From an uncultured Candidatus Saccharibacteria bacterium (lineage in GTDB: Bacteria; Patescibacteriota; Saccharimonadia; Saccharimonadales; Saccharimonadaceae), in contig CAZFYB010000005.1 in assembly GCA_964523145.1 (NCBI GenBank), positions 560 through 64,559 of the forward strand: a stretch of 64,000 nucleotides of DNA, read 5' to 3'. Numbering within the stretch: the first letter of the stretch is position 1; the number at the start of each line of letters is the position of its first letter. The notes under the pieces are model-generated. The model was not told the DNA's origin. It worked only from the letters and a program-made list of their open reading frames with translations, and made no database searches. A program made the translations under genes and the position numbers. This document shows positions 1,907 through 39,869 of this stretch, one piece after another.

Positions 1907-3100
1907 TTAACGAGCGGCCCGAAAACCTACGTATTCGTTTGTGAAACCGGGCGAAATATTTAAAAGAAGCGTGTACACTCCCCCAAATCCAGCAGAATCC
2001 CAGGAGCCACCGCGCAAGAATGGGCGAAGCCCAGCATCGGTCGAGTTACTTTGTATTTGGCCTATATTCTGACTTGAGCTCCATCCGTTAGCACTGGGGT
2101 TTGCGTAAGAAGGAAATGGGTTTGGCGATAAGTTGCCTGTAGCCGAAAGAGTGTTCCAGTTACGCCACGAATACCCTGTAGCACCAGGCTGGTTGCCGCC
2201 TTCGGTTGTACCCTGTGTCCACTCATAGAGATTACCTGAAAAGTCCCAAATAACTTCTCCGTTAGTAAGCGTCAGAGTTCTTCGTTGCTCTCCGCTTGAA
2301 TTACCAGTGTAAACATATCCACTCGTGTCAAGCGGCGCAGCACCAAGGGGGTGCGTAGGACTATTATCAGTATGACCACGGAACATAGAGCCTGAACCTA
2401 CGCTCCCTCCGCTCCAGTTACTTCCTACACTCATAACATTCTGAGCGATAGTAAGCCACTCTGCTTCAGTAGTTAAGTGGCAGCCAGAACAAGAAGCGGC
2501 GGCAAGTGCAATAGCGCTAGACTGTGTAACAGAGGACCATGGCCAATCGTCAAGTACACTAGTAGCTACTCCGCCGACATTTTTCGCCTCATACTTCATC
2601 ACACAAAAAGCCTTCGTATCATAAAGTGAGCTACCGGGTACAACAATATAGCCTGCTGGGCAGGGCTCGCCATCAGCTGCTACTGTTGGAGCAGTTCCGG
2701 TATGACCAGCACAAGGGCCCGGTACCGCATTCTTCACGCTACTTGTCGTACCTGCAACATGGGCACTCGTTCCGCTTGATGTTGCTGTTAAGCAAAATGT
2801 ATTAGGAGTGACAGTGGTATTACGAGTATATTGATACGTTAAATCGCCGGAGTTTGTAATACCTGCATCGGCGAGTTCTTCGGGTAAGGTTTCGCTGTTC
2901 AAGAGTGCATGCGCAGTGATTTTCTTTCCCGTCTGTTGCGCATTAGATAAAGACGCTGAATCTTTGGCCCGGTTTTGGATGCCGTTATACGCCACGATAG
3001 TGATTGCTGCGAGAATCGCAATGACAACAACTACAATCAAGAGTTCAACGATAGTAAAGCCACGAACAGAAACGGTTTTACCTTCGTTGCCTCCCCTCAT
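1907..3100 (-). CDS. Type IV pilin-like protein with C-terminal FGE-sulfatase/C-type-lectin-fold domain
   Basis: Class III signal G|FTIVELLIVVVVIAILAAI; C-terminal FGE-type motifs FCVMKYEA, LTTEAEW, DFSGNLYEW, RGGSW, VGFRAAR. Confidence 0.85.
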   Translation of the reverse strand: MRGGNEGKTVSVRGFTIVELLIVVVVIAILAAITIVAYNGIQNRAKDSASLSNAQQTGKKITAHALLNSETLPEELADAGITNSGDLTYQYTRNTTVTPNTFCLTATSSGTSAHVAGTTSSVKNAVPGPCAGHTGTAPTVAADGEPCPAGYIVVPGSSLYDTKAFCVMKYEAKNVGGVATSVLDDWPWSSVTQSSAIALAAASCSGCHLTTEAEWLTIAQNVMSVGSNWSGGSVGSGSMFRGHTDNSPTHPLGAAPLDTSGYVYTGNSSGEQRRTLTLTNGEVIWDFSGNLYEWTQGTTEGGNQPGATGYSWRNWNTLSATGNLSPNPFPSYANPSANGWSSSQNIGQIQSNSTDAGLRPFLRGGSWDSAGFGGVYTLLLNISPGFTNEYVGFRAAR

Positions 3101-3156: not shown

Positions 3157-4140
3157 TTATAACTTCAGGTAACGGCGGGTTGCCAGTAGTGATGAAACGA
3201 TGCCAATAACCGCTCCAATAATAATCATGCCAAGTAGTACAAACCCAGCGTAATACAGTACGAGGTCGAGCGTTGGTTGGATAGTTATTTCGGCGCTCGC
3301 AATAGCTGGTGCAACTAATATAAGAAGTCCGATACCAAGCGCGCTGGCAATTATTGCCGCAAAGAAGCCATATACGATCGCTTCAACCAAGAATGGGCCT
3401 CGAATAAATGAGCGTTCAGCACCAATAAGTTTCATCATCTGAATTTCTTCACGGCGGTTGAAGATTGCCATACGGATGGTGTTAAAAATAATCAACATCG
3501 AAATACTGGCAAATACCACGCTCACAATCACACCCACTTGCTGTGCAAAGGCAGCGGCGTTACCAATGGTTTCAATCGCATCTCGGCGCTCTCCTGCAAA
3601 CGATGGGTCGCGGTTTGGATCGATGAATTCTTTAATGACTTCATTATTTTCTACGACCTCAGCTAGTTGGGTTGTGTTATTGATTTCAACCACACTAATG
3701 TTTAATGTCCAGGGGAGCTTGTTAGTAGCTTGAGTTGCCGCTTCGAGTGCGCTAGGGTCACTACTTCGATCACGAATAAACTCTTCACGAGCTTCTTCTG
3801 GTGAAGTGGTTGTTACATTGGTAACACTACTAAGCTTTCGCACTTCGGCAGCGGCAAGCTCAGCATTCTCTGGAGTTGTTTCGGTTTTTAGGTAGATCGC
3901 CATCGTCACACTATCGCGCAGTTGCGATAGTGTGTTTTGCAATACATTCTGTGAAACCATACTTACGAAAATAACAAACAAGGTAATCGTCATAATGGCC
4001 GTAGCGGCAATCGTCAACCAAGCGTTACGGGTAAAGTTATTTACTCCGTATCGACACATGCGAAGAAAGGTCACCCACTGGCGGCGGTTTCGCTTTTGTT
4101 GCGATAATGTCTTTGAACTTACTTTCTTTTTTGCCATCAT
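3157..4140 (-). CDS. ftsX: Cell division permease FtsX
   Basis: 4-TM FtsX layout, IFNTIRMAIFNRREEIQMMKLIGA motif, coupled to ftsE. Confidence 0.93.
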   Translation of the reverse strand: MMAKKKVSSKTLSQQKRNRRQWVTFLRMCRYGVNNFTRNAWLTIAATAIMTITLFVIFVSMVSQNVLQNTLSQLRDSVTMAIYLKTETTPENAELAAAEVRKLSSVTNVTTTSPEEAREEFIRDRSSDPSALEAATQATNKLPWTLNISVVEINNTTQLAEVVENNEVIKEFIDPNRDPSFAGERRDAIETIGNAAAFAQQVGVIVSVVFASISMLIIFNTIRMAIFNRREEIQMMKLIGAERSFIRGPFLVEAIVYGFFAAIIASALGIGLLILVAPAIASAEITIQPTLDLVLYYAGFVLLGMIIIGAVIGIVSSLLATRRYLKL

Positions 4141-4823
4141 TACTGCCTGTAACTTCCCTCTGCTTGGTCACCGGTTACTTTACCGCCCTCAATCGTAATC
4201 ACTCGACGTTTGAGTTTATTGACAATATCAGCATTGTGAGTCGTCAGTAGTACGGTTGTTCCGTATTTGTTAATTTTTTCGAGCAAACGAACAATTTCCC
4301 AGGTGTTTTTTGGGTCAAGGTTACCAGTCGGCTCATCGGCAATCAGGATTTTAGGCTGACGCACAATCGCCCGAGCAATGGCTACGCGTTGACGTTCACC
4401 ACCCGAAAGTTGGCTGGGGAATTGTTTTTCTTTACCAGTAAGGCCGACAAGGTCGATCACTTTTGGCACGGTGTTTTTAATTTCACGGCCAGTCATACCA
4501 GCAATTTCGAGGGCAAAAGCAATGTTTTCAAACACGGTGCGTTGCGGCAACAGCTTAAAATCTTGAAACACCACGCCAATTTTACGGCGCAGCATAGGAA
4601 CTTGCGTATCTTTAAGTGTGTCGTAATCAATACCACCAACCACAATCTTGCCATTGGTTGGTTTTTCTTCGCGAGTCAGCAGCTTTAGAAGCGTTGACTT
4701 CCCTGCCCCAGAAGCACCAACAATAATCACGAATTCACGCGGTTCAATAAAAAGACTCAGCCGACTGAGAGCCGGCGCGTTATCTTTGCCGTATGTTTTT
4801 GTTACCCTATCTAGAAGTATCAT
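4140..4823 (-). CDS. ftsE: Cell division ATP-binding protein FtsE
   Basis: Walker A GASGAGKST, LRRKIGVVFQDFKLL, LSGGERQRVAIARA; adjacent to ftsX. Confidence 0.93.
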   Translation of the reverse strand: MILLDRVTKTYGKDNAPALSRLSLFIEPREFVIIVGASGAGKSTLLKLLTREEKPTNGKIVVGGIDYDTLKDTQVPMLRRKIGVVFQDFKLLPQRTVFENIAFALEIAGMTGREIKNTVPKVIDLVGLTGKEKQFPSQLSGGERQRVAIARAIVRQPKILIADEPTGNLDPKNTWEIVRLLEKINKYGTTVLLTTHNADIVNKLKRRVITIEGGKVTGDQAEGSYRQ

Positions 4824-4909
4824 TTCTGTACTAAGTATAGCATAAGCGTAGGTGCTGAAAATAGCATAAATACAGATATCAGGAGGTACAGAAACGTAAA
4901 TGTTGAGTT

Positions 4910-4946
4910 CCGAGAGGGCAACGCCTGGATTGGCGTGCCCTCTCGG
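4910..4946 (-). terminator. GC-rich hairpin ending the 4953-5501 gene
   Basis: ccgagagggc-a-acgcc / ggcgt-gccctctcgg inverted repeat with 6-nt loop, a few nt past the stop codon; U-tract weak. Confidence 0.6.
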
Positions 4947-4952
4947 GTGAAC

Positions 4953-5501
4953 TCACATAGAGGAGATGATGTCATCGATGGATTTCACGTTGAATGCCTT
5001 GCGAGCAGCCGCCAGTGAAACACCGACCATCCTGAGAACAGCTTCGACATGAGGGCTTTCGGAGTTGATAATCGCGACCAGCAGGTCTTTACGATACAAC
5101 ACCGGGTTCCTCGTCATCGCGCCAGGCGACAACATCAGGTTGATCATCATCTGATTGTAGGCCGGGGTGTTAGAAACAACGGGCTGTTCATCAACGATCT
5201 TCTTGCCCCACGCATCCTTTTTGGCGAAAAGGCGCTTGAACCATGAAGGTGTTGGGCGCTTCTCAAGGTTGAGCGTGATGTACTCCCGCACCATAGGTGC
5301 GCGCAGACCGATGTCGAGAAACCACTTAGTAGCAGTGTCGGCACCGGGGTTTTCAAGCATGGCGTACAAGTACACCACCGGTTCAAGCTGTGTAAGCTCA
5401 AACTCGTAAGTAGCGCTGTTGTTCGCGAGGGCAACCAGGTCGCCGATGTAGTTGGTGGGGAAATCATCGATGAACTGCCTCAAATCGGCGGAATCAGACA
5501 T
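4953..5501 (-). CDS. Hypothetical protein resembling a stand-alone Clp N-terminal (repeat) domain
   Basis: Start moved to ATG 5501 (purine-rich gagagagaag upstream). Two repeats with Clp_N-like pattern (LEPVVYLYAML...FLDIGL; YRKDLLVAII.SES..VEAVLRMVGVS). Confidence 0.5.
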   Translation of the reverse strand: MSDSADLRQFIDDFPTNYIGDLVALANNSATYEFELTQLEPVVYLYAMLENPGADTATKWFLDIGLRAPMVREYITLNLEKRPTPSWFKRLFAKKDAWGKKIVDEQPVVSNTPAYNQMMINLMLSPGAMTRNPVLYRKDLLVAIINSESPHVEAVLRMVGVSLAAARKAFNVKSIDDIISSM

Positions 5502-5637
5502 GAACACTTCTCTCTCTTGGGTGAGTTGGATTTCAGAATACTTATGTATCCCGTATCTACTGATATAGATTGTAAAGGTTCCCACCTCGCCACATAACCG
5601 TGGTGAAATCTGCTATATTATATCACACTTAAGCTAA

Positions 5638-6720
5638 TTAATCAATAGTTGGCGCTTCGAGGTAGGCTTCCATGAATGGATCAAGGTCGCCGTCAAGTAC
5701 CCCTTGCGCGTTATTGGTTTCATGCTTCGTACGGGTGTCTTTCACGAGTGTATACGGGTGGAGCACATAATTTCGAATTTGACTGCCCCAGTTAGCCGAC
5801 TCACCGGCTTGAAGTTCGGTAATTGAGCTGGCGTGCTGTTCGATTTGCAGCTGTGCTAACTTTGAGCGAAGTAACTTCAAGGCGGTTTCTTTATTTTGTA
5901 GCTGTGAACGTTCGTTTTGGATCGCAACTACGATACCAGTTGGAATATGGGTAATACGCACCGCACTATCAGTCGTATTTACAGACTGCCCGCCATGCCC
6001 ACCGGCGCGATATACGTCAATCTTTAGATCCTTATCATCTACCTGCACCTCAGTCGGAGCATCGATTTCAGGCAACACCTCAATCAGCGCAAAGCTTGTT
6101 TGGCGTAAGTTATCGCTATTAAAAGGGCTGAGGCGCACCAATCGGTGCACGCCATGTTCGGATTTTAGTTTTCCATACGCATACGGCCCGGTAACTTCAA
6201 TAACTACGGATTTTACCCCTGCTTCTTCACCGGCCGAACGTTCAATAATAGCGGTTGAGGCACCTGATTTTTCTGCCCAGCGTAGGTACATTCGTTCAAG
6301 CATTTCCGTCCAATCTTGGGCATCTGTACCACCAGCGCCCGCACTTAAACGTAAAATTGCATTATGATCATCGAATTCACCGTCAAACAATAAGTCTTTT
6401 CGGAGCACCGCAAAATCTTTTTCGAGTGCTAAAATCTGCCCTTCAAACTCCCCTAACAAACTATCATCATCAAGGTCCATAAGTTCAGTAATATCATTTA
6501 CCTGCGACCGCAGTGTTAACCATGGGTCGACCATTTTTTTCAGAGCCGCTAGTTGCTTGCTTAAATCTTGAGCATATGAAGGGTTGTTCCAAATTTCCGA
6601 AGTCGCCAGTTGCGCTTCGTACTCATCAATTTTTGCCTGCTTTTCAGGTAGATTCAATCGAGTAATGGCTGCTTCAAGTTGCGGGCGGAGTTCGGCAAGG
6701 CGTTTTAAGAGTGGTTGCAT
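5638..6720 (-). CDS. prfB: Peptide chain release factor 2
   Basis: SPF tripeptide (RLSPFNS) and GGQ motif; single uninterrupted ORF. Confidence 0.96.
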   Translation of the reverse strand: MQPLLKRLAELRPQLEAAITRLNLPEKQAKIDEYEAQLATSEIWNNPSYAQDLSKQLAALKKMVDPWLTLRSQVNDITELMDLDDDSLLGEFEGQILALEKDFAVLRKDLLFDGEFDDHNAILRLSAGAGGTDAQDWTEMLERMYLRWAEKSGASTAIIERSAGEEAGVKSVVIEVTGPYAYGKLKSEHGVHRLVRLSPFNSDNLRQTSFALIEVLPEIDAPTEVQVDDKDLKIDVYRAGGHGGQSVNTTDSAVRITHIPTGIVVAIQNERSQLQNKETALKLLRSKLAQLQIEQHASSITELQAGESANWGSQIRNYVLHPYTLVKDTRTKHETNNAQGVLDGDLDPFMEAYLEAPTID

Positions 6721-6732
6721 ACTACCAGTATA

Positions 6733-8016
6733 CTAGAGTGCGTTGACTGCGGCGATAAACTGTTCTCCGCGATCTGCGTAATTCTTAAATAATCCGAAGC
6801 TGGCGGCAGCAGGACTGAGGAGTACCACCCCACCTGGCTGGGCAAGTTCGGAAGCTCTTTTAGTAAACTTTTCTGCCGTAGCATTTTCAATAGTTTCAAA
6901 ATTCGTAAAACCGGCAGCTTGAAATGCGGCTGCGATAGTAGGTGCTTCATCACCAATAAGGATCGCTTTCACTTCATGGTTCGGAAGTTCAGCCGCTAGT
7001 TCTGTAAAATCTGAACCCTTTGAAGATCCGCCTAAAATTATCACCTTCGACTTATCAGCAAAAGCACGCAGCGCGGCAATGGCCGAGCTAGGTGTGGTAG
7101 CGATGCTATCATCGTAATATTCCACATCGTTCACTGTACGAACATACGCCAAACGGTGTGGCAATCCCTTAAAGCTACGAAGCCCCGCTTCGATATGTTC
7201 GGGGTTTTGAGTGTATTCCCATACAGCGTCAATGGCCGCAATGGCATTATCAAGGTTGTGCGCGCCCGGTAGTCGCACGGCATCTACCGAACATAGTTTC
7301 GTTTCACCATTGTAAAAATAACCGTCACGTATGTGTGTCGTAAAGTCGCTTGGGTAGGCAACTTTTTTTGCTACCGAACTGTCAGCAATTTGTTTAGCAT
7401 AATCGTTTGCGCCGTTATATATAAGGATGTCGTCTGGGGTTTGATGGCGGGTAATCTGCGCTTTTGCTTCAACATACTCGGCCATATCGCGATGAACATC
7501 TAAATGCTCCTGCTCAATAAACAATACGACAGCCGTGTGGGGCGATTTTTCGAGATCCCATAATTGAAAACTAGAAAGCTCGTACACAACCACATCTTCA
7601 GGTTTAATTTCAGATAATACATCTAGTGAAGATAACCCAATATTACCGACTAGCCATACTTTTTTACCGGCTGCTTGTAATATTGCTGCAATCAAGCTCG
7701 ATGTCGTCCCCTTCCCTTTTGAACCGGTCACGCCAATAATCGGCGCTGGGCACTGAACAAAAAATTCATTCGTAGCTGACCAAATTTTTCCATCGGTGCT
7801 AATTTTATGGGGCGCCAAACCGGCGGTTCGAATCACTAAATCAAAACCGTTCAATCGGCTAAAAGCACCCTCACCAGAGATAACTGCAGCGTCTGGCGGA
7901 AAAGCAAAGCCAGTACCATTTTCATCAATAATCGTGACTGAGTTTTCATGGTTTTTCGCCCAATACTGATAATTAGTCGCCCCTTCAACACCGTATCCAG
8001 CAATTGCTATATTCAT
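6733..8016 (-). CDS. murD: UDP-N-acetylmuramoyl-L-alanine--D-glutamate ligase
   Basis: GVTGSKGKGTT, GNIG, ELSSFQL, HLDVH, HRLAYV, DDSIAT, LLSPAAASFGLFKNYADRG. Confidence 0.95.
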   Translation of the reverse strand: MNIAIAGYGVEGATNYQYWAKNHENSVTIIDENGTGFAFPPDAAVISGEGAFSRLNGFDLVIRTAGLAPHKISTDGKIWSATNEFFVQCPAPIIGVTGSKGKGTTSSLIAAILQAAGKKVWLVGNIGLSSLDVLSEIKPEDVVVYELSSFQLWDLEKSPHTAVVLFIEQEHLDVHRDMAEYVEAKAQITRHQTPDDILIYNGANDYAKQIADSSVAKKVAYPSDFTTHIRDGYFYNGETKLCSVDAVRLPGAHNLDNAIAAIDAVWEYTQNPEHIEAGLRSFKGLPHRLAYVRTVNDVEYYDDSIATTPSSAIAALRAFADKSKVIILGGSSKGSDFTELAAELPNHEVKAILIGDEAPTIAAAFQAAGFTNFETIENATAEKFTKRASELAQPGGVVLLSPAAASFGLFKNYADRGEQFIAAVNAL

Positions 8017-12049: not shown

Positions 12050-13039
12050 TTAGAGGGGCGGACCGGTAGACGTTGAATTATTCGCAGTACCATTCCAAGT
12101 CCAGCCTGGTGAAGTGCCGCTCGCAAACGGATAGAGCGTCTCGCCTTCAGTAACCATTAGCCCTGTACCCTCTAAGATTAAGCCAGCCGAAACATTCACA
12201 TTACTGTCCACGTCACTAATAATATAAAAACCGATCGCACCAGCTGGAGCAGTAACGGTATTTGATAATCTCGTCCATGTATTCGGTACAAGCGTTACTA
12301 CAGGGTCTAGCTCGATCGTCATTGTAGTGTTTGTAGCATCTCTCCATGACAAATGAATACCAACATTATTTAAAGCTCGATTCGAACGAATATAACTTGA
12401 GATAGTATATTTTTTACCTTCAGAAATTGGCGTTCCTGGCCCCTGATTATGCTCAAATCCAAGATCACCCCCTGCATTTGTAAAGGAGGTCCATTCTTTG
12501 CGAGCATACGTTGTTAACCCAGCGGGACCATCTGACGCGCCAGTGACGAGCGTGTACGATCCCGCACTTCCACTTTGCCCAAACCACCGGACATTACGCC
12601 AACCGGCACCGTTAGCATGCACCCCGTAAAATGTCGCGTCAGGATCAGTTGCTAAGTTCGTAATAGCACACGCACCAGCAGTAGGGCTGCTCGAAGTACT
12701 TGAGACATAATAGCTCACACCTTGAACAATAACCGTAAGGCAAAACGTTCGAGGGCTAGCAGTATTATTAACTTGATATTGATAGGATGTATTTGTATCG
12801 TTTTGCAAACCAGCGGTTGCAGCATCAATAGGATACGTTTCAGCATTCTGAATCGCATAAGATTGAATTTTCGTATATGCCTGTTTGGCACTTGATTGTG
12901 CCGCTGAAGCTTTGGCTCTATTTTGGATACCGTTATAAGCCACGATGGTAATTGCAGCAAGAATAGCAATCACCACAACGACAATGAGGAGTTCAACGAT
13001 CGTGAAACCCTTGCGCGCACCCAAAGAGCTATTATACAT
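12050..13039 (-). CDS. Type IV pilin-like protein with C-terminal carbohydrate-binding-like beta-sandwich
   Basis: G|FTIVELLIV signal; C-terminal TNLATDP...YTISSYIRS...WTRLSNTVTAPAGA...GLMVTEG...WTWNGTANNSTS pattern. Confidence 0.8.
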   Translation of the reverse strand: MYNSSLGARKGFTIVELLIVVVVIAILAAITIVAYNGIQNRAKASAAQSSAKQAYTKIQSYAIQNAETYPIDAATAGLQNDTNTSYQYQVNNTASPRTFCLTVIVQGVSYYVSSTSSSPTAGACAITNLATDPDATFYGVHANGAGWRNVRWFGQSGSAGSYTLVTGASDGPAGLTTYARKEWTSFTNAGGDLGFEHNQGPGTPISEGKKYTISSYIRSNRALNNVGIHLSWRDATNTTMTIELDPVVTLVPNTWTRLSNTVTAPAGAIGFYIISDVDSNVNVSAGLILEGTGLMVTEGETLYPFASGTSPGWTWNGTANNSTSTGPPL

Positions 13040-14827: not shown

Positions 14828-15811
14828 TCAATTTTGTACAGCTGGACCAAAAGCAGCTGAGGTATTAGGCGCTCCTACCCACGCCCAGGCAGTTGAAGTA
14901 CCCTCGCCGTAGTCATAATACTGTGCACCACGAGTTACCATAAGACCATCAAAATCAAGCGTTTCACCAGCGGCAGTTGGGGTTGTACAGTTATTTGAGG
15001 GTGTCGTTAAGGCAATGCGGAGTGTCACGGCTCCGGCGGGTGCAACCCGTGCACCACCATCAAGTCGCATCCATGTGTTTATAGTAGACAAATTCGTCAT
15101 ATACTCGTAACTACCAGCTGACGTACCGGCACTATTAAACCAGTTGTAATTTAATGCAACCGGCCGAGCATGAGAAAAACGAAAGTAGCTTGATGCGCGG
15201 TACGTTTCTCCGGCAGTAATCGCTATTGAAGGTGACGTAATCCCAATATTACAAGTGTTCGTTGTACAAGCAGCTGTCCATTGCTTTCGATAGTAATTCC
15301 CTCCCTGTGCTCCACCGGTTGAATTAACAGCTACTACACCGCTAGCGCAGCCATTACCCCACCATTGATTTGACCATCCTGTCGCTCCGTTATCGAACGT
15401 TCCATTAATGGCAAAATTCGTCACACATGAACCCGCAACTGGCCCGTTTGAAGTTGCTGTGGTCGCATATACAAATGAGTTTGAGGAGTTCTCGAGTGAT
15501 GCACAATATGATTTTAGATCACTACTGGTTATATACGAGTAAGTAACAGGTGAGGTTTCCGTAAAATTCATATACGACAAAAACTCATTTTTATCTGCGG
15601 GATACGTTTCGTTATTGGTTACCGTATACGTACTCATTTTTTTATTTATTTGAGACACCGCTGAACGTGCGGCGCTATCTTTGGCGCGATTTTGAATACC
15701 GTTATACGCAACGATGGTAATTGCAGCAAGAATAGCAATAACAACCACCACTATAAGTAGTTCGACTATCGTAAAGCCTAATTTTTGACGAGATATGCCC
15801 ACTCGATTCAT
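14828..15811 (-). CDS. Type IV pilin-like protein with C-terminal carbohydrate-binding-like beta-sandwich
   Basis: G|FTIVELLIV signal; TNFAINGTFD...DFDGLMVTRG...WAWVGAPNTS; same architecture as 12050-13039. Confidence 0.8.
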   Translation of the reverse strand: MNRVGISRQKLGFTIVELLIVVVVIAILAAITIVAYNGIQNRAKDSAARSAVSQINKKMSTYTVTNNETYPADKNEFLSYMNFTETSPVTYSYITSSDLKSYCASLENSSNSFVYATTATSNGPVAGSCVTNFAINGTFDNGATGWSNQWWGNGCASGVVAVNSTGGAQGGNYYRKQWTAACTTNTCNIGITSPSIAITAGETYRASSYFRFSHARPVALNYNWFNSAGTSAGSYEYMTNLSTINTWMRLDGGARVAPAGAVTLRIALTTPSNNCTTPTAAGETLDFDGLMVTRGAQYYDYGEGTSTAWAWVGAPNTSAAFGPAVQN

Positions 15812-23747: not shown

Positions 23748-24446
23748 TTATCCTCCAAATCGGCGCTGTCTTCGCGCGTATTCATTCATTATAGCCGTCA
23801 CATCCGCTTTTGTCATATCTGGCCATAACTTCTTCAAAAACAGCAATTCACTATACGCTGAACGCCATAACATAAAGTTACTGATACGCTGTTCGCCACT
23901 GGTACGGACCATTAAATCAAGTGGTGGCACCTCTGGTGCATACAGATTTTGAGCAATTAACTCTTCGGTCACTTCCTCGGCCTCAACGCCCGATTGAACA
24001 ATTTTTTTAACTGCATCGGTAATTTCAAGTTGTCCGCCATAATTAAAACATACCAAAAACACACCGCCAGTGTTTTGAGCAGTGTCAGCTTCAGCCTTAT
24101 CGATAGCCTTTAAAATCTTTGGGTCGAGGCCGTCTTTTGAGCCAATAATCCGTAGCTGCACGTTGTATTTGTTGAATTCAGGCACATCAGCGCTGAGCAC
24201 TTTCAAGGTAAGTCCCATGATTCGCCTCACTTCATCGGAACTTCGCTTCCAGTTTTCGGTTGAAAACACATATGCCGACATATACTCCACACCCGCTTCT
24301 AGAGTCGCCAATGCCACCTCTTTCAATGCATTATAGCCCGCTAAATGACCCTCATACGTAGGCAAGCCATGTTTCTTCGCCCAACGGCGGTTTCCATCAA
24401 CAACATACCCCACATGTTTTGGTATTTGTGCAGCATCCTCGGCCAT
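23748..24446 (-). CDS. uppS: Undecaprenyl diphosphate synthase (cis-prenyltransferase)
   Basis: HVGYVVDGNRRWA, FSTENWKR, RTSGEQRISNFMLW, RRFGG. Confidence 0.95.
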   Translation of the reverse strand: MAEDAAQIPKHVGYVVDGNRRWAKKHGLPTYEGHLAGYNALKEVALATLEAGVEYMSAYVFSTENWKRSSDEVRRIMGLTLKVLSADVPEFNKYNVQLRIIGSKDGLDPKILKAIDKAEADTAQNTGGVFLVCFNYGGQLEITDAVKKIVQSGVEAEEVTEELIAQNLYAPEVPPLDLMVRTSGEQRISNFMLWRSAYSELLFLKKLWPDMTKADVTAIMNEYARRQRRFGG

Positions 24447-25000
24447 TACAAAGTCAGGATTTCTTTTTCTTTATCTTTAAAGAGTGAATCTAGCTGAGCA
24501 TTATTAGTAGCGACAAATTCATCGATTGTTTTTTCGATACGCTTTAAATCGTCCTCAGAAAGCTCTTTGGCATCTTTTAAGCGCTTGGCATCTTTTTGCG
24601 CATCTTGGCGAATATTACGCAAAGTGATGCGCGCTTCTTCAACCTTTTCAGAGGTTTGCTTAACTATTTGCTTGCGGCGTTCTTCGGTCAGTGGCGGAAT
24701 CGGCACACGCACTAATCGCCCGTCATCGCTTGGGTTTAGGCCCATTGCTTGCTCATTTCGAATCGCGGCAACGATATTTTGTAAGTTACCTGGATCAAAC
24801 GGAGTCACCGTTAATAGTTGCGCCTCAGGTGCGGTTACGTTCGCAACTTGATTCAGCGGCACTTTATTTCCGTATGCTTCAACCTGAATGCTATCAAGCA
24901 TAGTGGGGTGTGCGCGGCCAGTACGAACCTTTCGCAACTCATCGCTAAAGTGCGCGACAGCCTGGCTAAAACGGTCTTCATATTGTTTCGTATTAAACAT
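24446..25000 (-). CDS. frr: Ribosome recycling factor
   Basis: RTGRAHP, NPSDDG, PPLTEERRK; start moved to ATG 25000 (185 codons). Confidence 0.95.
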   Translation of the reverse strand: MFNTKQYEDRFSQAVAHFSDELRKVRTGRAHPTMLDSIQVEAYGNKVPLNQVANVTAPEAQLLTVTPFDPGNLQNIVAAIRNEQAMGLNPSDDGRLVRVPIPPLTEERRKQIVKQTSEKVEEARITLRNIRQDAQKDAKRLKDAKELSEDDLKRIEKTIDEFVATNNAQLDSLFKDKEKEILTL

Positions 25001-25097
25001 AAGTCTCTCTTTCTTAACAGTATTCATTATATCAGGTTCGGTATCCCCGTTATAAGATATTGCACATTTTAATGTAAAATTGTATAATATATCACAC

Positions 25098-26165
25098 ATG
25101 AAAAAGAAATCTGCCTCGGGGCCCATGGAGTCCCCTCGCTTTATCTACCAACCACACACCATTGATACCCTTGCAATGGCCACAGAGCGTCTGGACTCGA
25201 TCAATGAAGACTACCACCAGCTGTCTGTTGATCAAAACCCTCACTTAAACACACACCCCTATGAAGGTGCGGTGTTATTCACGATTGACGAACGCCCTGC
25301 CGATCGCGCTTCGGCTATTCTTCATGCACCTGCATATGGCCTATGGAACGACCCGCGGCTTGATTTTTTCAAAGACTCTATTGAGCGCCGAAGAGTTATA
25401 TTGAGCCAAACCGCCCTTGGTAAAGCGATCGCCGAAACAGTACCCACCTTTCATTCGAGTAAAATGAACCCCGAGCAACAGATAATTTGGGCGCGGCCTA
25501 TTGTTGATGGCGACACAACTACCGGTGCCGTGCAACTTGCGTATACCATTAATCAGGACCCCGAGTGGAACTACCCCACTAATGATGAAGTTGAAAACAT
25601 CTGGAGTAAACACGAACGTAGCATGAATGAAGTTGCCCGAGCACTTTCGCAACTTGCGCTACGGACCGGGTCGCTATCACGAAGCCTCGAAATTGCACCA
25701 CCTGTCACCCCGAACGCATTTATTGTTCATTGGGATATTCAAAACTCAGCTAAAGACGCTCTGACCGACCGCTATGCCCAAATGGCCGCCTATTTAGAGA
25801 TATGGAAGGCGCACCGTAAAGAGCTTACCGACCAGTTAAACGCAACCGTGCTTGATCGTGGTGATGGTGAACACATTATTATTCCTATTACCACCGACCT
25901 TAACGACCCAGCACGTGTTCGTACCTTTGGAAAACGAACAATTCCTGATTTCGTTACGGCACTCACCGCTGAACATGACCGTGTTGCGCAATCTTTTGCT
26001 CCGGATATCTTTCCTAAAATGCATGTAGGTGTTGGTATCGGCAATATCGAAAAGGGTGAAAACAACAATCCCACAGGACAAGTCCTATGGGATGTTATGA
26101 AACTGAGCCGGGCAGAAGATTATTCTGTCGCCTACACTGAGGCAGCTCGAAACATGTTGTTTTAG
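25098..26165 (+). CDS. GAF-like domain + divergent class III nucleotidyl cyclase domain
   Basis: GAF-like WARPIVDGDTTTGAVQLAY; cyclase motifs in correct order: IVHWDIQNS, DRGDGEHIII, KMHVGVGIGNI, TGQVLWDVMKL, SVAYTEAARNML. Start moved to ATG 25098, 9 nt after TATAAT. Confidence 0.7.
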   Translation: MKKKSASGPMESPRFIYQPHTIDTLAMATERLDSINEDYHQLSVDQNPHLNTHPYEGAVLFTIDERPADRASAILHAPAYGLWNDPRLDFFKDSIERRRVILSQTALGKAIAETVPTFHSSKMNPEQQIIWARPIVDGDTTTGAVQLAYTINQDPEWNYPTNDEVENIWSKHERSMNEVARALSQLALRTGSLSRSLEIAPPVTPNAFIVHWDIQNSAKDALTDRYAQMAAYLEIWKAHRKELTDQLNATVLDRGDGEHIIIPITTDLNDPARVRTFGKRTIPDFVTALTAEHDRVAQSFAPDIFPKMHVGVGIGNIEKGENNNPTGQVLWDVMKLSRAEDYSVAYTEAARNMLF

Positions 26166-26758
26166 TCGTTTACGCCGAGTTCAATGCGCTTGAAACGGCG
26201 AATAACAATGTTTTCACCGGTTTTTGCGATGTTCTCTTTAAGGAAATCAGCAACAGTTTGTGAATCGTTCATAATGTACGCTTGGTTCAATAGAACTTTA
26301 TCAGCAAAGTGCTTTTTCACTTGGCCTTCAACAATTTTTTCAGCCATTTCAGCTGGCTTGCTTTTTAGGGCTTCGCTTTCAAGTGCTTCTTTACGAACAC
26401 GCTCTAGTTCTTCGGCTGGAATATCAGCTTCAGAAACGTAAACTGGGTTCATTGAAGCAACCTGTAGTGCGATGTAGTGAGCAAACTCTTTAAACCCATC
26501 GGTGCGTGCAACGAAGTCGGTTTCACAGTTTACTTCTACAAGAACACCGATACGGCCACCGTGTACGTAGCTATCGATAACGCCTTCAAGTGCTTCACGG
26601 TCAGCCTTCTTTTCAGCTTTCGTGAGGCCTTTTTTGCGCATCGCTTCGAGTGCTTTATCAAAGTCACCTTCTGCTTCTACAAGCGCTACCTTAGCGTCAG
26701 TTAAACCAACGCCGGTAAGTTCTTTTAATTTTCGAATGTCGTCAATTGATACTGCCAT
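26162..26758 (-). CDS. tsf: Elongation factor Ts (short form)
   Basis: LKELTGVGLTDAKVAL, VEVNCETDFVAR, ENIVIRRF. Confidence 0.96.
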   Translation of the reverse strand: MAVSIDDIRKLKELTGVGLTDAKVALVEAEGDFDKALEAMRKKGLTKAEKKADREALEGVIDSYVHGGRIGVLVEVNCETDFVARTDGFKEFAHYIALQVASMNPVYVSEADIPAEELERVRKEALESEALKSKPAEMAEKIVEGQVKKHFADKVLLNQAYIMNDSQTVADFLKENIAKTGENIVIRRFKRIELGVND

Positions 26759-27626: not shown

Positions 27627-28139
27627 TTAAATCTCCACTTGCCTTCGCAAAATCGCACTCTTCACTACTCGTGACAATCCCAGCGCTCTTTGTACGTCAA
27701 TATTATTCGTAAATTCTTCAGCGCTCACATGTGTGAATTGCCGCGCACCGATAACACCAATGTGGCCGAGTGCTGAATCAAGGTGCGCTTTTACTTGTTC
27801 GGTCAAAAACGCTTCGTCAAACGTTTCGGCAATATCGTGGTCAACCTTGATATCGTCCACTACTTTCATTATTTCATCGTACCGATCACCGGTATATTCA
27901 GCTCGCTCATTGATAGTTCGGCGCAAGTTATCTGCATCCTCCCAAAAACCTTCAACAATCCTATAGGCTCGAATGTCTTTTGATTTTTCCGCCTGTGCCA
28001 AATACGCTTCAGCTAATGCGTCATAGTTATCTACCCGCTCTCGTACTTCATCTTCAGTAAGCGCCATTAAATGCGCTTTGTGTACGTCTGCTACTCGGCT
28101 ATCGTCTTCATGTGGTGAGTGCGGTGTTTCAAATGTCAT
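27627..28139 (-). CDS. Hypothetical protein (helical, acidic)
   Basis: Open frame of 170 aa; start moved to ATG 28139, 7 nt after a TAATAT box; no recognisable motif. Confidence 0.7.
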   Translation of the reverse strand: MTFETPHSPHEDDSRVADVHKAHLMALTEDEVRERVDNYDALAEAYLAQAEKSKDIRAYRIVEGFWEDADNLRRTINERAEYTGDRYDEIMKVVDDIKVDHDIAETFDEAFLTEQVKAHLDSALGHIGVIGARQFTHVSAEEFTNNIDVQRALGLSRVVKSAILRRQVEI

Positions 28140-28262
28140 AGTTGCTATATTACACCTTATATAAAATATTCCAAAATATGATATAATATAGATAATCACC
28201 GCGTGATTGTTCGTTTCACTATCCTCATGCTCGCCACCTCGTTGAAAGAAGGGCTTTTACCC

Positions 28263-36116: not shown

Positions 36117-37067
36117 TTAGATCTGTCCACCACCAGTAGCAACGATCACTAACGCGCCAAGCGCCAGCATACCCCAAAATGTGTACATTCCATGGTGCAA
36201 TTTCCAGCTTCGCTGCCACGTTTTCGGGAGCTTGTCGCGGTAATGATGAGCGGCAGCACCTACAATTGCAACAACAGCAAATAATCCTAGTATGAGTATC
36301 GTTACAGGGCTCAACGATTGAACCGCGCTCCCAAAGTACGTTAACGGATTACTTCCCTCACCTGATACGGTCGAGCCAGTAAATGTTGGCGATGCAGCAG
36401 TTGCCCCTTGAGTCGCAGCTACAGTTACTGGTGATCCATAAAACGCTACCACCAGCACCGTATCGCGGCCCTCAAGTGTTCCTTCAACTACCGCAAACCC
36501 TACTTCGCTATATTTTCCATTCAGCACATTCTCGCGGTGTGTTGGTGAATTCATCCAGGCAGCAACCGTTGCATCGGCCGTTGGGTAATTTTTTGCAAGG
36601 TTCTCGCCCGCAACACTATAGTTATACCCGGCATCACCAAGCCATTTCCAGGGGTGTACACCAGTTGGTGAGGTATGCGCCCAATAATTGTTGGTAAACA
36701 TGTCCTGCGCCTTTAGAAAGGCTGCTTGAGCGAGTTGATCGTTCAATGTAAGTGCCGCTACGCCTTGCTTGCTTCGCTCCCCATTCGTATCGGCCAATAG
36801 CTCAACAGTATCGATATCCGAAACACGGCCAAGGATCTCGAAATGACCAGTGGTTGCGAACCCGTATATCACCTGAGCGAGCAGGGCGATCGCCAGAACA
36901 ACAGTCACACCAGACAGGCGCGATAGATGCGGTCGGTAGTCGTTTGCCTTGTGTGGCACAAGTGCACGTTTTGTGTGACGCCGTACTTTTGCCACCAGCG
37001 AAGTAGGCTTCGCTTTAACTGAACGAGCCACAACAGATTTTTTTACTTGTTTCTTTTTAGTGGTCAC
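36117..37067 (-). CDS. CAP/SCP domain membrane protein
   Basis: LAQAAFLKAQDM, YWAH, AGENLA, WMNSPTHRENVL, EVGFAV; N- and C-terminal TMs. Confidence 0.88.
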   Translation of the reverse strand: MTTKKKQVKKSVVARSVKAKPTSLVAKVRRHTKRALVPHKANDYRPHLSRLSGVTVVLAIALLAQVIYGFATTGHFEILGRVSDIDTVELLADTNGERSKQGVAALTLNDQLAQAAFLKAQDMFTNNYWAHTSPTGVHPWKWLGDAGYNYSVAGENLAKNYPTADATVAAWMNSPTHRENVLNGKYSEVGFAVVEGTLEGRDTVLVVAFYGSPVTVAATQGATAASPTFTGSTVSGEGSNPLTYFGSAVQSLSPVTILILGLFAVVAIVGAAAHHYRDKLPKTWQRSWKLHHGMYTFWGMLALGALVIVATGGGQI

Positions 37068-37131: not shown

Positions 37132-39762
37132 TTAACTATCTTCGCGGCGGTTACGCGCAGCGGCGATAATCCACCAAGCAAGCGCTGCAAGTCCGGCGAT
37201 AATCACAATCCACCAGTACCAAGCAAGTCCCATCCAGCGACCGTTGTTCTCATCGCTATTTACGGCTTGAGCAAGGGTGTCTTCGGTGGTGGCACCGGCT
37301 ACATCTTCGGCAGTAGCACTTTCGTCAGTACTTTCACCAAGTACAGCCACGTTTGTAAATCCAGGACCAACTATTGTTGGCGTTGCAGCAACAGCTGTTG
37401 TCTGTGGACCAGTTCCGTTTGCGCCATCAGCAGTTGTGTTCGTACCTTCTACTTCTTCGCCTGAGTTATCAACGAAGCTTGTGTAAGTAAAACTAAATGT
37501 ACGTGTCGTTACGTTACCTACTGCATCAGTCACGGTAAGGTCAAATTCGTAAGTGCCGTCTTGCAACACCGTAAAGTCAGGCTCAAGTACATTTGCATCA
37601 GAAATCTCAACACCATCAAGGTCTCCACTGGTTTGAGTCCATTCAGGAATTCCAGCCCCTGCATCTACTTCTGGAGTTATAACATTACCGAATGTAGTGT
37701 AGTTAAGAATCTCCACTTCAGGTGCCGTGTTGTCTACCGTAAAGCTAAAGTATTTTACCGAATTGGCAGTATCAAGGTTACCTGCGGCATCCCGCGCAGC
37801 AAGTCGAATCTGGTATACGCCATCATCAAGAAGTGTCGTGTCGAGCGATCGTGAAATTGAAGCAGCTGCACCGCTCACGTTCGTTTGGCCACCTGTTGTC
37901 CAACCACCTGCAACCGCTTCGCGATCGCTACTATGTGGAGCACCATCGCTTAAATCAACTCCGTCTTTATAGAGTGATAGATTGTAGTGACCAAATCGCA
38001 CGTTATCTGAAACTGAACCAGTGACTGTTACAGTTCCTCTTACCACTGTCGGTAATGAGTTGAGTATTACTTCAGGTGCAGCAGTATCGAAGTCAAAGGT
38101 TATTGTTGAAGAATTTCCGGCTGTATCTCGTACGGTTACAGTATTTTGCCCCTGGAGTATATGCGCCGGGTTAATGTTAGACCAGTTGAGGTCAGCCCAC
38201 GTACCAGTGCGGTTGTATAGGTTACCGTTAACATCAACTTCTTTAAGGTTACCGTTAACATCATGTAGCTTAAAGCTAATGTACGTGAATGGATTTGAGG
38301 CAGATGATCCGTCAACCATTGATGTACTAGTGCTCTTGATAGTAACGCTAGGAATGTTGTTATCGATAGTAAAGAAGTGGTAGCTGGTGTTTGAATTTCC
38401 AGTTGCATCGCTTGATACAATCTTTAGGCCATACTTTCCACTTAGCGCAGAAGTGTTAAAGACGAGCTTAGGTGAAGCACCGTAACGTACGTTGCCTGCT
38501 CCATTAGTATTGTCCTTAACCCAGTTTCCATATGAGCCATCCCAGTTAGCTTTAAATAGCTCGATGTAAGCGCCTTGTGGAGCACTACCTTCATCAGATA
38601 GAGTTGCCTGGAAAGTGGTTGGGTTAGCGCCAGGGATCAATACAGCTGAGCTTGATGCAGTGTTTTCAGGCAATTCTACTCCATTAGCATTAACCGTATT
38701 CGTAGGACCAGTCGAATCAAAGTTTAGTGTTACAGGACTAGACCATTCGGACGATAAACCTGTCGTTGTATTAAGAGCTTTCACGCGATACGTATATGAA
38801 CCATCTCCGTAAATCGAGAACTCACCTTGCGCTGGTACGTTATTTTTTACAAGCCAAGTATTGTTGAAATTATTCGATACTTGCTTTGTGCCACCTGGGT
38901 AAATAATTTCAGTAATATACTTAGCGCCACTAACAGCATCAAAGTTTAGCGCTACGTTACCCGTAATGAAACTTGGACCTACAGTAGTTCCACTTGCAAT
39001 CACCGCCGATCCACGGTTTATGCGAATATTCTGAGGTGTTTCTGGTGCGTATCGCCCAGCTTCGATATTACTCCAACGAACAGCGTAGTCATTTGTTCCA
39101 AAGTTATAATTATTTAAAATTATTCGGCGGAAGTCGACAGTTGGCTCAGTAGCACTGGTACCTACTAAGGAATCATTCACATATACATCAGTTTTTGTCG
39201 AATCAAGTTTATTGATTGCTAATTCAATCGTATTCCAGCCAATAGTTGCTGAAGTTACGTCAATATCGCGCCATCCTCCTGGGTTACTGTCCCAGATACG
39301 CCAGTTAGTAGAAGATGTGGCGGTGTTATACTCCAGGATTGGATACGAGCTAATGGCACCAGAAGTTTCGTGACCAACTCCCCAAAATCCTGCACGTACA
39401 TTTTCAGGCCAAGTTGGGTCGATATATAAATCAGCCTTTAGGGTTTGTGTACCGTTAGCAACTGTTTTCGCAATACCTTCATATTGATAAAAAGTAGAAG
39501 GAGCATCACTAGGCGCATCAACACCTATAGAAAGCGTTTGACGTCCATCGAAAGACTCAGAACCATATCCTCCTGAAGGTGTCGTACGATCAACCGTCCA
39601 ACCGGCAGCAGGATCTACGGTTGTATAGCCAGTACCAGCTACCGCTCCAACCTCTTGTGACAAAATAAACGGCACCGCGGCCGTCAAAGTACTTACTGCT
39701 AATACGAATGCAAGGCTAAAAAGTCCGACTCGTTTATATACTGAAATCAATGTTTGCTTCAT
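37132..39762 (-). CDS. Large cell-surface protein: signal peptide, lectin-like beta-sandwich, Ig-like repeats, C-terminal TM
   Basis: Signal MKQTL...QEVGA; repeated F.(I/V)DN.(I/A)P.V Ig-boundary motifs; acidic/Thr stalk; WMGLAWYWWIVII TM plus RNRR. Start moved to ATG 39762 (AGGAG SD). Confidence 0.8.
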   Translation of the reverse strand: MKQTLISVYKRVGLFSLAFVLAVSTLTAAVPFILSQEVGAVAGTGYTTVDPAAGWTVDRTTPSGGYGSESFDGRQTLSIGVDAPSDAPSTFYQYEGIAKTVANGTQTLKADLYIDPTWPENVRAGFWGVGHETSGAISSYPILEYNTATSSTNWRIWDSNPGGWRDIDVTSATIGWNTIELAINKLDSTKTDVYVNDSLVGTSATEPTVDFRRIILNNYNFGTNDYAVRWSNIEAGRYAPETPQNIRINRGSAVIASGTTVGPSFITGNVALNFDAVSGAKYITEIIYPGGTKQVSNNFNNTWLVKNNVPAQGEFSIYGDGSYTYRVKALNTTTGLSSEWSSPVTLNFDSTGPTNTVNANGVELPENTASSSAVLIPGANPTTFQATLSDEGSAPQGAYIELFKANWDGSYGNWVKDNTNGAGNVRYGASPKLVFNTSALSGKYGLKIVSSDATGNSNTSYHFFTIDNNIPSVTIKSTSTSMVDGSSASNPFTYISFKLHDVNGNLKEVDVNGNLYNRTGTWADLNWSNINPAHILQGQNTVTVRDTAGNSSTITFDFDTAAPEVILNSLPTVVRGTVTVTGSVSDNVRFGHYNLSLYKDGVDLSDGAPHSSDREAVAGGWTTGGQTNVSGAAASISRSLDTTLLDDGVYQIRLAARDAAGNLDTANSVKYFSFTVDNTAPEVEILNYTTFGNVITPEVDAGAGIPEWTQTSGDLDGVEISDANVLEPDFTVLQDGTYEFDLTVTDAVGNVTTRTFSFTYTSFVDNSGEEVEGTNTTADGANGTGPQTTAVAATPTIVGPGFTNVAVLGESTDESATAEDVAGATTEDTLAQAVNSDENNGRWMGLAWYWWIVIIAGLAALAWWIIAAARNRREDS

Positions 39763-39869
39763 CTGACACACTCCTACTTATGAAAAAGCAGTCGTCCACC
39801 TCGACTGTTTACTCGCAGTTTTAAATTGTTAATACAAATCTCAACTTTGTATTTTTCTTAACTTTACCA

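Follow-up and report, generated by a model that had tools for sequence, protein, structure and literature searches.

What does a protein do that is encoded, on the strand opposite to its neighbors, between the genes frr and tsf of a Saccharibacteria genome? The gene in question lies in a stretch of 64,000 nucleotides (the whole of this 64-kb stretch is called the window below) of contig CAZFYB010000005.1 from assembly GCA_964523145.1, which derives from a groundwater metagenome and whose nearest named relatives are metagenome-assembled genomes of Candidatus Saccharibacteria and Microsaccharimonas. The protein combines a GAF-fold sensor domain with a minimal class III cyclase homology domain (CHD). 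We favor the interpretation that it is a GAF-gated nucleotidyl cyclase employing two metal ions, to which we assign a probability of about 45%. Its nucleotide and product are not predictable because the residues that canonically read the substrate have been replaced by a family-specific set. The strongest argument for this interpretation is a complete metal site that is nearly universal in a family of only 21% mean identity, together with purifying selection on the gene.

25098-26165, + strand: coding sequence of the GAF and minimal CHD protein, 355 amino acids, stop codon included (supported by the open reading frame, homologs, AlphaFold2 and dN/dS)

Domain architecture of the protein

In a program-made list, the open reading frame (ORF) extends from 25080 to 26165 on the + strand, and its ATG at 25098 yields a protein of 355 amino acids whose first methionine is common to 26 of 26 close homologs. 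That this is a real gene, not a chance ORF, is confirmed by the homologs, by a predicted local distance difference test score (pLDDT) of 89.8 for the modeled fold, by ratios of nonsynonymous to synonymous substitution rates (dN/dS) of 0.02-0.16, and by a contig assembled from the source DNA run. Because this contig spans 23700-27415 with 0 differences from the window, the gene arrangement is not an assembly artefact.

Single-protein searches of Pfam, NCBIfam, PADLOC and PDB sequences gave no meaningful match for the 355-residue protein, for which one sub-threshold match to DUF7126 was recorded. Weak matches to a polyketide-synthase dehydratase over residues 90-167 were set aside, as the fold results give them no support. 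A word-indexed search returned 26 full-length homologs of 45-53% identity, none carrying a Pfam domain, and when 1.84 billion cluster representatives were searched exhaustively with a profile, about 107 distant homolog clusters emerged, nearly all 320-375 amino acids long. The wide family alignment (A2) built from these holds 98 sequences, each representing a cluster, at a mean column identity of 21%, and all counts out of 98 given below refer to it. A Pfam scan of the 98 members produced two weak DUF3095 matches and one GGDEF match at E 0.074 but no bridging member, and neither the query nor any of the 98 matched a Pfam GAF family. Literature searches found no description of the family. As a separate observation, seven segments of one protein of 2339 amino acids (P0122) each match positions 243-301 of the family profile (E 3e-8), perhaps because the protein is repetitive or as an artefact of low complexity.

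Structure prediction was more informative. A full-length AlphaFold2 model based on the 26-sequence alignment shows two domains (pLDDT 89.8, predicted template modeling score 0.84), which are arranged on the DNA as follows.

25140-25667, + strand: GAF-fold sensor domain, residues 15-190 (AlphaFold2 models, Foldseek)
25458-25472, + strand: S121-K-M-N124-P125, the best-conserved GAF motif (column counts: S 93/98, N 78/98, P 68/98)
25671-25718, + strand: linker SLSRSLEIAPPVTPNA from the C-terminal helix of the GAF domain to CHD beta1 (family consensus SLxxxLELxxPxTPNA)
25710-26162, + strand: minimal class III CHD, residues 205-355 (Foldseek, with TMt 0.55-0.63 for Ma1120, Rv1900c, CyaB and adenylate cyclase C1; hmmsearch, hhalign)

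The N-terminal domain is modeled as a sheet of five strands accompanied by two short helices, with an N-terminal helix at residues 19-46 and a long C-terminal one from residue 162 to 187/189. When residues 1-192 were modeled alone (pLDDT 88.1), Foldseek returned 31 matches at E<=1e-3, every one of them a GAF domain or a GAF-like IclR ligand-binding domain, with TM-scores up to 0.65. Among these matches are 3eea, PDE10A GAF-B, the PtsP GAF domain, the Lcd1 GAF domain with cAMP, PDE2/5/6 and DevS. On the strength of these models, we conclude that this domain has the GAF fold. Residues S121, N124 and P125, along with Q146 (nucleotides 25533-25535; present in 90 of the 98 clusters) and the likewise conserved R98/R99, are candidates for lining a ligand pocket. 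In the linker, P202, P205 and N206 are retained in 87-91 of 98 clusters.

The C-terminal half resembles solved class III cyclases in Foldseek comparisons with the PDB (TMt 0.5-0.63, E 2e-5 to 5e-4), including Rv1900c, Ma1120, CyaC, CyaB, mammalian C1, Cya2 and soluble guanylate cyclase. The whole chain is matched by the phytochrome-cyclase 6fht, the GAF-GGDEF protein 4zmu, BLUF-cyclases, and 6yii, an adenylate cyclase-like ATP-binding protein. Profile methods agree with the structural comparison: the family profile matches the Mycobacterium tuberculosis adenylate cyclase Rv1625c from beta1 to beta3 (hmmsearch, E 1.4e-4), and hhalign pairs it with eight real class III CHDs at 95% probability (E 3.9e-8). 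Against eight real GGDEF domains, which like the CHDs were taken from annotated plasmids, the probability was 0.2% (E 0.26). This value rules out a GGDEF diguanylate cyclase, whose GG[DE]EF motif differs from the G-D-G-[EQ] found here. By profile and by modeled fold, the C-terminal domain belongs, if remotely, to the class III lineage and is not a diguanylate cyclase. The initial annotation of this gene as a GAF domain plus a class III CHD is thus borne out by Foldseek, by the Rv1625c profile match and by hhalign.

An active site with an intact metal half

Three groups of residues define class III activity: those that bind the metals, those that bind the substrate and those that act on the transition state (PMC4886424). 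The segments of the protein that correspond to them are these.

25731-25748, + strand: WDIQNS, residues 212-217, with the first metal Asp (D213) and the phosphate-loop Ser (S217); equivalent to F-x-D-I-x-G-F-T
25851-25871, + strand: LDRGDGE, residues 252-258, with the second metal Asp (D256) in a G-D-G turn (HMMER, hhalign, column counts)
26019-26051, + strand: MHVGVGIGNIE, beta4-beta5 (column counts, hhalign)
26076-26111, + strand: GQVLWDVMKLSR, alpha4 helix, residues 327-338 (column counts, hhalign)

HMMER and hhalign agree in aligning D213 with the Asp of FADIVGFT and D256 with the Asp of GDSYMVV. Both metal motifs stand where they had first been noticed. Among the 98 clusters, D213 is kept in 93, D256 in 95, G255 in 90, G257 in 92 and S217 in 89, and the complete D...GDG set is found in 86 despite the mean column identity of 21%. 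Conservation within the protein peaks in the metal half of the CHD (beta1-beta3) and is lowest in residues 266-355. Neither a fold outside class III nor a general loss of the Asp residues among homologs, either of which would have contradicted the initial annotation, was found.

The family-specific conserved residues are N206, W212, Q/E258, G315 (84/98), E318 (72/98), an aromatic residue at 331 and a basic residue at 338. The last two lie in alpha4, where position 331 is W in this protein (W/F/Y in 85/98) and position 338 is R (K/R in 63/98), in the region where canonical CHDs have N-x-x-x-R.

We infer ligand gating, dimerization, catalysis and the nature of the product, as follows. The protein would be a soluble, probably dimeric, one-component signaling enzyme whose N-terminal GAF domain binds a small molecule. 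Binding would then control the minimal CHD by way of the long C-terminal helix and the SLxxxLE-PPxTPNA linker. The CHD would bind a nucleoside triphosphate (NTP) and two divalent metals through D213, D256 and the D-I-x-x-S loop, and would carry out a reaction of the nucleotidyl-cyclase type with release of pyrophosphate. The base-reading and transition-state residues (Lys/Asp, Asn/Arg and the hairpin Lys) would be replaced by N206, Q/E258, E318, W331 and K/R338. An enzyme is preferred to a mere binding module because the D...GDG set is so nearly universal at 21% identity.

Several findings weigh against this interpretation. The substrate-defining pair, in canonical enzymes Lys/Asp for ATP and Glu/Cys or Ser for GTP, is absent across the family: HMMER and hhalign place L252 at the Lys position of 'IKVSGD', in a column that is variable (D17, S13, L11, ...), and no conserved Asp, Cys or Ser marks the second position. 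At the position of the phosphate-binding Arg in beta4, the 355-residue protein has H309; Arg is present there in 51 of 98 clusters. The transition-state Asn and Arg are missing in both possible registers of alpha4, nor is either residue conserved in any column from 300 to 355. The ungapped register equates W331 with Asn and K335 with Arg, and the hhalign register, after a four-residue gap, equates D332 with Asn and L336 with Arg; the choice between them is of low confidence, as default hhalign ends at residue 323. Any N-x-x-x-R at all occurs in the last 50 residues of only 16 of the 98 members. The last beta-hairpin, which in canonical adenylate cyclases carries a phosphate-binding Lys, is also absent. 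The protein stops after the helix following alpha4, at template column 168 of 214 and before the KGKG hairpin. Overall, the CHD resembles that half of a heterodimeric cyclase which bears the Asp residues ('C1-type'), with a private set of residues added, and the mammalian C1-type half is inactive alone.

Five of the 98 clusters, although still full length, have also lost one or both metal Asp residues (P0022, P0036, P0085, P0028 and P0046). One of the three lacking both is P0022, a member of the close clade at 48% identity, in which position 213 is G and position 256 is N. These five may be non-catalytic derivatives or decaying copies. Beyond the active site, none of the 98 members matches Pfam Guanylate_cyc (PF00211) even at E<=1, nor does the query. 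The ORFs of at least 150 amino acids in the window include no effector that binds cyclic nucleoside monophosphates (cNMPs), no second cyclase and no phosphodiesterase. Three near-complete relatives, L010, L011 and L012, lack the gene (contigs of 0.83-0.93 Mb; ribosome recycling factor, RRF, 79-82% identical). Finally, three metatranscriptome runs of the source study gave no contig from the locus, rpsB and tsf included.

The initial annotation had already noted that the N-x-A-x-R motif and the specificity Lys are missing, and the absence of Asn/Arg in either register and the Leu at position 252 agree with it. What it had missed are the truncation of the CHD, which removes the terminal hairpin, the change of the beta4 Arg to His, and the hypervariability of the locus described below. 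The summary that it offered, a cyclase of unpredictable specificity or a pseudo-cyclase, is still a correct statement of the uncertainty.

The second of those options, in which the CHD binds an NTP and metal without turnover and serves as a nucleotide or small-molecule sensor or as a scaffold, is in our judgment unlikely but deserves serious attention. None of the canonical partner-side catalytic residues is present, nor is the terminal hairpin, the phosphate Arg has given way to H309, and P0022, P0036 and P0085 are otherwise intact proteins without the Asp residues. Such an arrangement has a precedent in 6yii, which has the top query-normalized TM-score (TMq 0.36) among the full-length Foldseek matches listed, and the lack of an effector nearby is as expected. 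Pure binding, however, does not need both carboxylates, and the metal Asp pair, the GDG turn and the phosphate-loop Ser persist in about 90-97% of clusters at 21% mean identity, within a metal half that is better conserved than any other part of the protein.

Another way to account for the missing residues is that the protein supplies only a metal-binding half-site and pairs with a CHD protein encoded elsewhere that contributes the Lys, Asp, Asn and Arg. Heterodimeric class III cyclases are well established, as in mammalian C1/C2 and the alpha/beta subunits of soluble guanylate cyclase. The C1-type pattern seen here, with the Asp pair kept, the beta4 Arg in about half of the family and the partner-side residues absent, is what would be expected of such a subunit. 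We nevertheless regard this as a long shot. The ORFs of at least 150 amino acids in the window include no second CHD-like protein, tblastn found no paralog of the gene, and the genomes amount to only about 0.8-0.9 Mb. Moreover, the presence of the gene in its fixed slot varies independently, without a linked partner, and its own conserved E318, W331 and K338 in the second half of the CHD suggest a self-sufficient site.

The slot between frr and tsf

The local gene order is proS, CPBP protease, rseP, uppS, frr, the GAF-CHD gene, tsf and rpsB, with the GAF-CHD gene alone on the + strand and the others on the - strand. The coordinates confirm the opposite-strand position between tsf and frr that was described initially.

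24446-25000, - strand: frr, 184 amino acids from the ATG at 25000, as in homologs
25061-25088, + strand: promoter-like TGCACA-16 nt-TATAAT (consensus scan; a candidate by pattern match only)
26162-26758, - strand: tsf, whose stop codon overlaps that of the GAF-CHD gene by 4 nt

As listed by program, the frr ORF (24446-25126, - strand) includes a 42-codon N-terminal extension beyond the real start at 25000. With the start at 25000, frr and the GAF-CHD gene do not overlap but are separated by a divergent spacer of 97 bp. The promoter-like site lies in this shared spacer, its -10 hexamer stopping 9 nt short of the ATG at 25098; such sites are no more numerous than expected from shuffled sequence. 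Given the position of this candidate -10 element, the GAF-CHD mRNA would be leaderless or nearly so.

The same placement recurs widely. Usable flanks were available for 29 loci, drawn in part from a search of metagenome contigs with the close-clade alignment, and in 27 of them the gene occupies one slot in one orientation (uppS <- frr <- [gene ->] <- tsf <- rpsB). The exceptions are two distant members, one located before rplK (L009) and one among Ku/LigD, IMPDH and permease genes (L015). Across loci the flanking proteins are well conserved, with identities of 83-94% for EF-Ts, 75-83% for RRF, 73-77% for UppS and 65-74% for RseP, whereas the slot gene varies from 53% down to 21% identity while its flanks hold at 73-94%. 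One locus, L004, has a second variable insertion in the slot: an extra 137-residue ORF without a Pfam match (7078-7491, - strand) between tsf and the family member P0029, which is 32% identical to the protein studied here.

Despite this divergence, the gene evolves under constraint. Its dN/dS, about 0.05, ranges in close pairs over 0.02-0.16 (mostly 0.04-0.08) and is similar to that of the neighboring housekeeping genes, with a dN several-fold above theirs. Its dS is about 0.8-12 times that of its neighbors, mostly 1.5-5 times, in pairs of loci among L032-L048; for the L038-L041 pair, dS is 1.13 for the gene and 0.15-0.73 for the neighbors. Either the alleles are older than their flanks or the constraint on codon usage differs, and the pattern fits deep allele classes that may be exchanged by way of the conserved flanks. 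Judged from these comparisons, the gene is functional and constrained by purifying selection, yet accessory: a variable cassette present in some strains only. The proposed cyclase would then be an accessory module in a fixed frr-tsf slot of Saccharimonadaceae-like Saccharibacteria, its divergent versions each held under purifying selection.

In the generic bacterial order rpsB-tsf-pyrH-frr, this slot is the place of pyrH, which raises the idea that the gene substitutes for the UMP kinase. Its position is the only point in favor. The fold is GAF plus CHD and not that of an amino-acid kinase, there is no match to PF00696, and the gene is on the opposite strand. In the three relatives that lack the gene (L010, L011 and L012), tsf and frr lie on the same strand 81-178 bp apart (junction about 3820-4000), with neither the GAF-CHD gene nor pyrH between them. 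Since relatives without the gene have tsf beside frr and no pyrH there, the gene is a variable accessory and not a pyrH replacement. The initial statement that it sits 'where pyrH normally sits' is accurate for the generic bacterial order, but the displacement that it suggests finds no support in these relatives. With both the fold and the locus comparison refuting substitution, its probability is negligible. No pyrH was found among the ORFs of at least 150 amino acids in the window. In L010, uppS seems to be split into ORFs of 129 and 156 amino acids (4555-5644), of which only the second has a Prenyltransf match; a frameshift or an assembly error is possible.

The patchy occurrence of the gene, and its 21-53% identity between flanks of 73-94%, also bring to mind an anti-phage or host-interaction module specific to certain strains. 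In this case the protein might be a palm-type nucleotidyltransferase and not a mononucleotide cyclase, making linear or cyclic di- or oligonucleotides or simply consuming NTPs. GDG(Q/E)-type hairpins also occur in the palm domains of GGDEF proteins and Cas10, and this family has lost the residues that would position the ribose to attack within the same molecule. We consider this improbable. There is no profile-level similarity to GGDEF domains (hhalign 0.2%), four family members had no match in PADLOC, and no effector or defense genes are adjacent. Selection is purifying overall, not diversifying, and the matches in a viral structure library were to generic GAF and cyclase folds and gave no further link to phages.

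Other features of the window are recorded for completeness. Beside rpsB, at 27627-28199 on the - strand, is an acidic ORF of 190 amino acids without a Pfam match, whose counterpart in L001 has a weak Phage_Mu_Gam match only. At least eight ORFs carry a prokaryotic N-terminal methylation (type IV pilin-like) motif, one of them with a PA14 domain and one with a carbohydrate-binding module, which is a large pilin/pseudopilin repertoire for one 64-kb stretch. Three more ORFs probably encode surface or secreted proteins, which are plausible as host-interaction factors of an episymbiont.

1907-3100, 12050-13039, 14828-15811, 54785-55573, 55596-56054 and 56824-58449, all - strand: pilin-motif ORFs (N-terminal methylation motif)
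37132-39771, - strand: 879-residue Ig-like/PKD protein
36117-37067, - strand: CAP-family protein
639-1841, - strand: CHAP-domain (peptidoglycan hydrolase-type) protein

Significance and relation to known systems

Saccharibacteria and other bacteria of the candidate phyla radiation (CPR) have tiny genomes and depend on host bacteria, and to our knowledge almost no signaling has been described in them. The 'adenylate cyclases' annotated in oral TM7 Saccharibacteria are CYTH-type proteins. A family of sensor-coupled cyclases that is missed by standard annotation libraries would give a first handle on second-messenger signaling in this lineage. An intact metal site without the canonical base-reading and transition-state residues is also a natural test of which residues class III enzymes need, and the occurrence of divergent versions under purifying selection in one slot, together with frequent absence, points to a strain-specific function. 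In a bolder version of the preferred interpretation, which strikes us as doubtful, the family would be a new class III-type subclass whose metal half works with W331/K338/E318/N206/Q258, producing a non-canonical nucleotide signal or using a non-purine substrate. It would then act as a swappable, strain-specific sensor cassette at the frr|tsf hotspot of episymbiotic Saccharibacteria, for example for cues derived from hosts or phages. If the protein proves to be no more than a weak adenylate cyclase of the ordinary kind, or an inert binding protein, the result would be a routine gain in annotation.

The initial annotation had drawn attention to Pycsar, whose PycC cyclases (7r65, 8jsz) share a class III-like fold and atypical specificity residues and are among the Foldseek matches. 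The link finds no support here. PycC structures give weaker matches than adenylate cyclases (TMt 0.40-0.44, hmmsearch E 0.21), PycC has no GAF domain, and the GAF-CHD gene has neither a PADLOC match nor an adjacent cNMP-activated effector. At 27 of the 29 loci the gene is surrounded by frr, tsf, rpsB and uppS, none of which encodes a cNMP-activated effector. In this respect the initial observation that no effector is adjacent agrees with the wider survey, in which no window ORF of at least 150 amino acids has a cNMP-binding domain.

A parallel is provided by the DUF2652 cyclase-like proteins, which are single-domain proteins of about 250 amino acids from Actinobacteria, Bacteroidetes and Proteobacteria that retain the Arg (Ramakrishnan et al. 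2016, PMC4886424). They too are a class III offshoot seen only by profile and fold methods, with conserved metal Asp residues and other residues that are non-canonical (PMC4886424). The two families are distinct, since neither the query nor any of the 98 family members matches DUF2652. The class III adenylyl cyclase-like ATP-binding protein of Pseudomonas aeruginosa (6yii, so titled in the PDB) likewise joins a sensor to a degenerate CHD and is a precedent for a non-catalytic domain, but in the GAF-CHD family the metal site is complete in about 90% of members.

The minimal mycobacterial cyclases Rv1625c (catalytic domain), Ma1120 and Rv1900c are the best matches in sequence and structure (E 1.4e-4, TMt 0.54-0.63), with the metal motifs of beta1 and beta2-beta3 aligned. 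They retain the Arg, the substrate-defining pair in canonical or variant form, and the C-terminal hairpin, whereas the GAF-CHD family retains none of these and has about 20-25 fewer residues beyond the second Asp. Active class III cyclases without the canonical Asn do exist, Rv1900c being one of them (PMC4886424). The C1 domain of mammalian adenylate cyclase (1azs_A, 1cjk_A; TMt 0.56-0.57) is similar in having two Asp residues and the beta4 Arg without the Lys, Asp, Asn and Arg of its partner. C1 works only with C2, whereas the GAF-CHD protein has no evident partner and has conserved residues of its own in the second half.

The overall layout is like that of GAF-regulated class III adenylate cyclases, for which the engineered phytochrome-cyclase 6fht is the structural match. 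A GAF domain, a helix and a CHD in this order are the known layout of ligand-activated cyclases, and both metal Asp residues are shared. The cyanobacterial proteins CyaB1 and CyaB2 would be the type of GAF-regulated adenylate cyclase to compare with the GAF-CHD protein. It would differ from them in having one GAF domain and no PAS domain, in that both of its domains are invisible to Pfam, and in the lack of the substrate Lys/Asp, the Asn/Arg pair and the hairpin at the end of the CHD. The family extends a known architecture, a GAF domain joined to a class III CHD, by a divergent branch that had not been annotated before, and it demonstrates no new principle.

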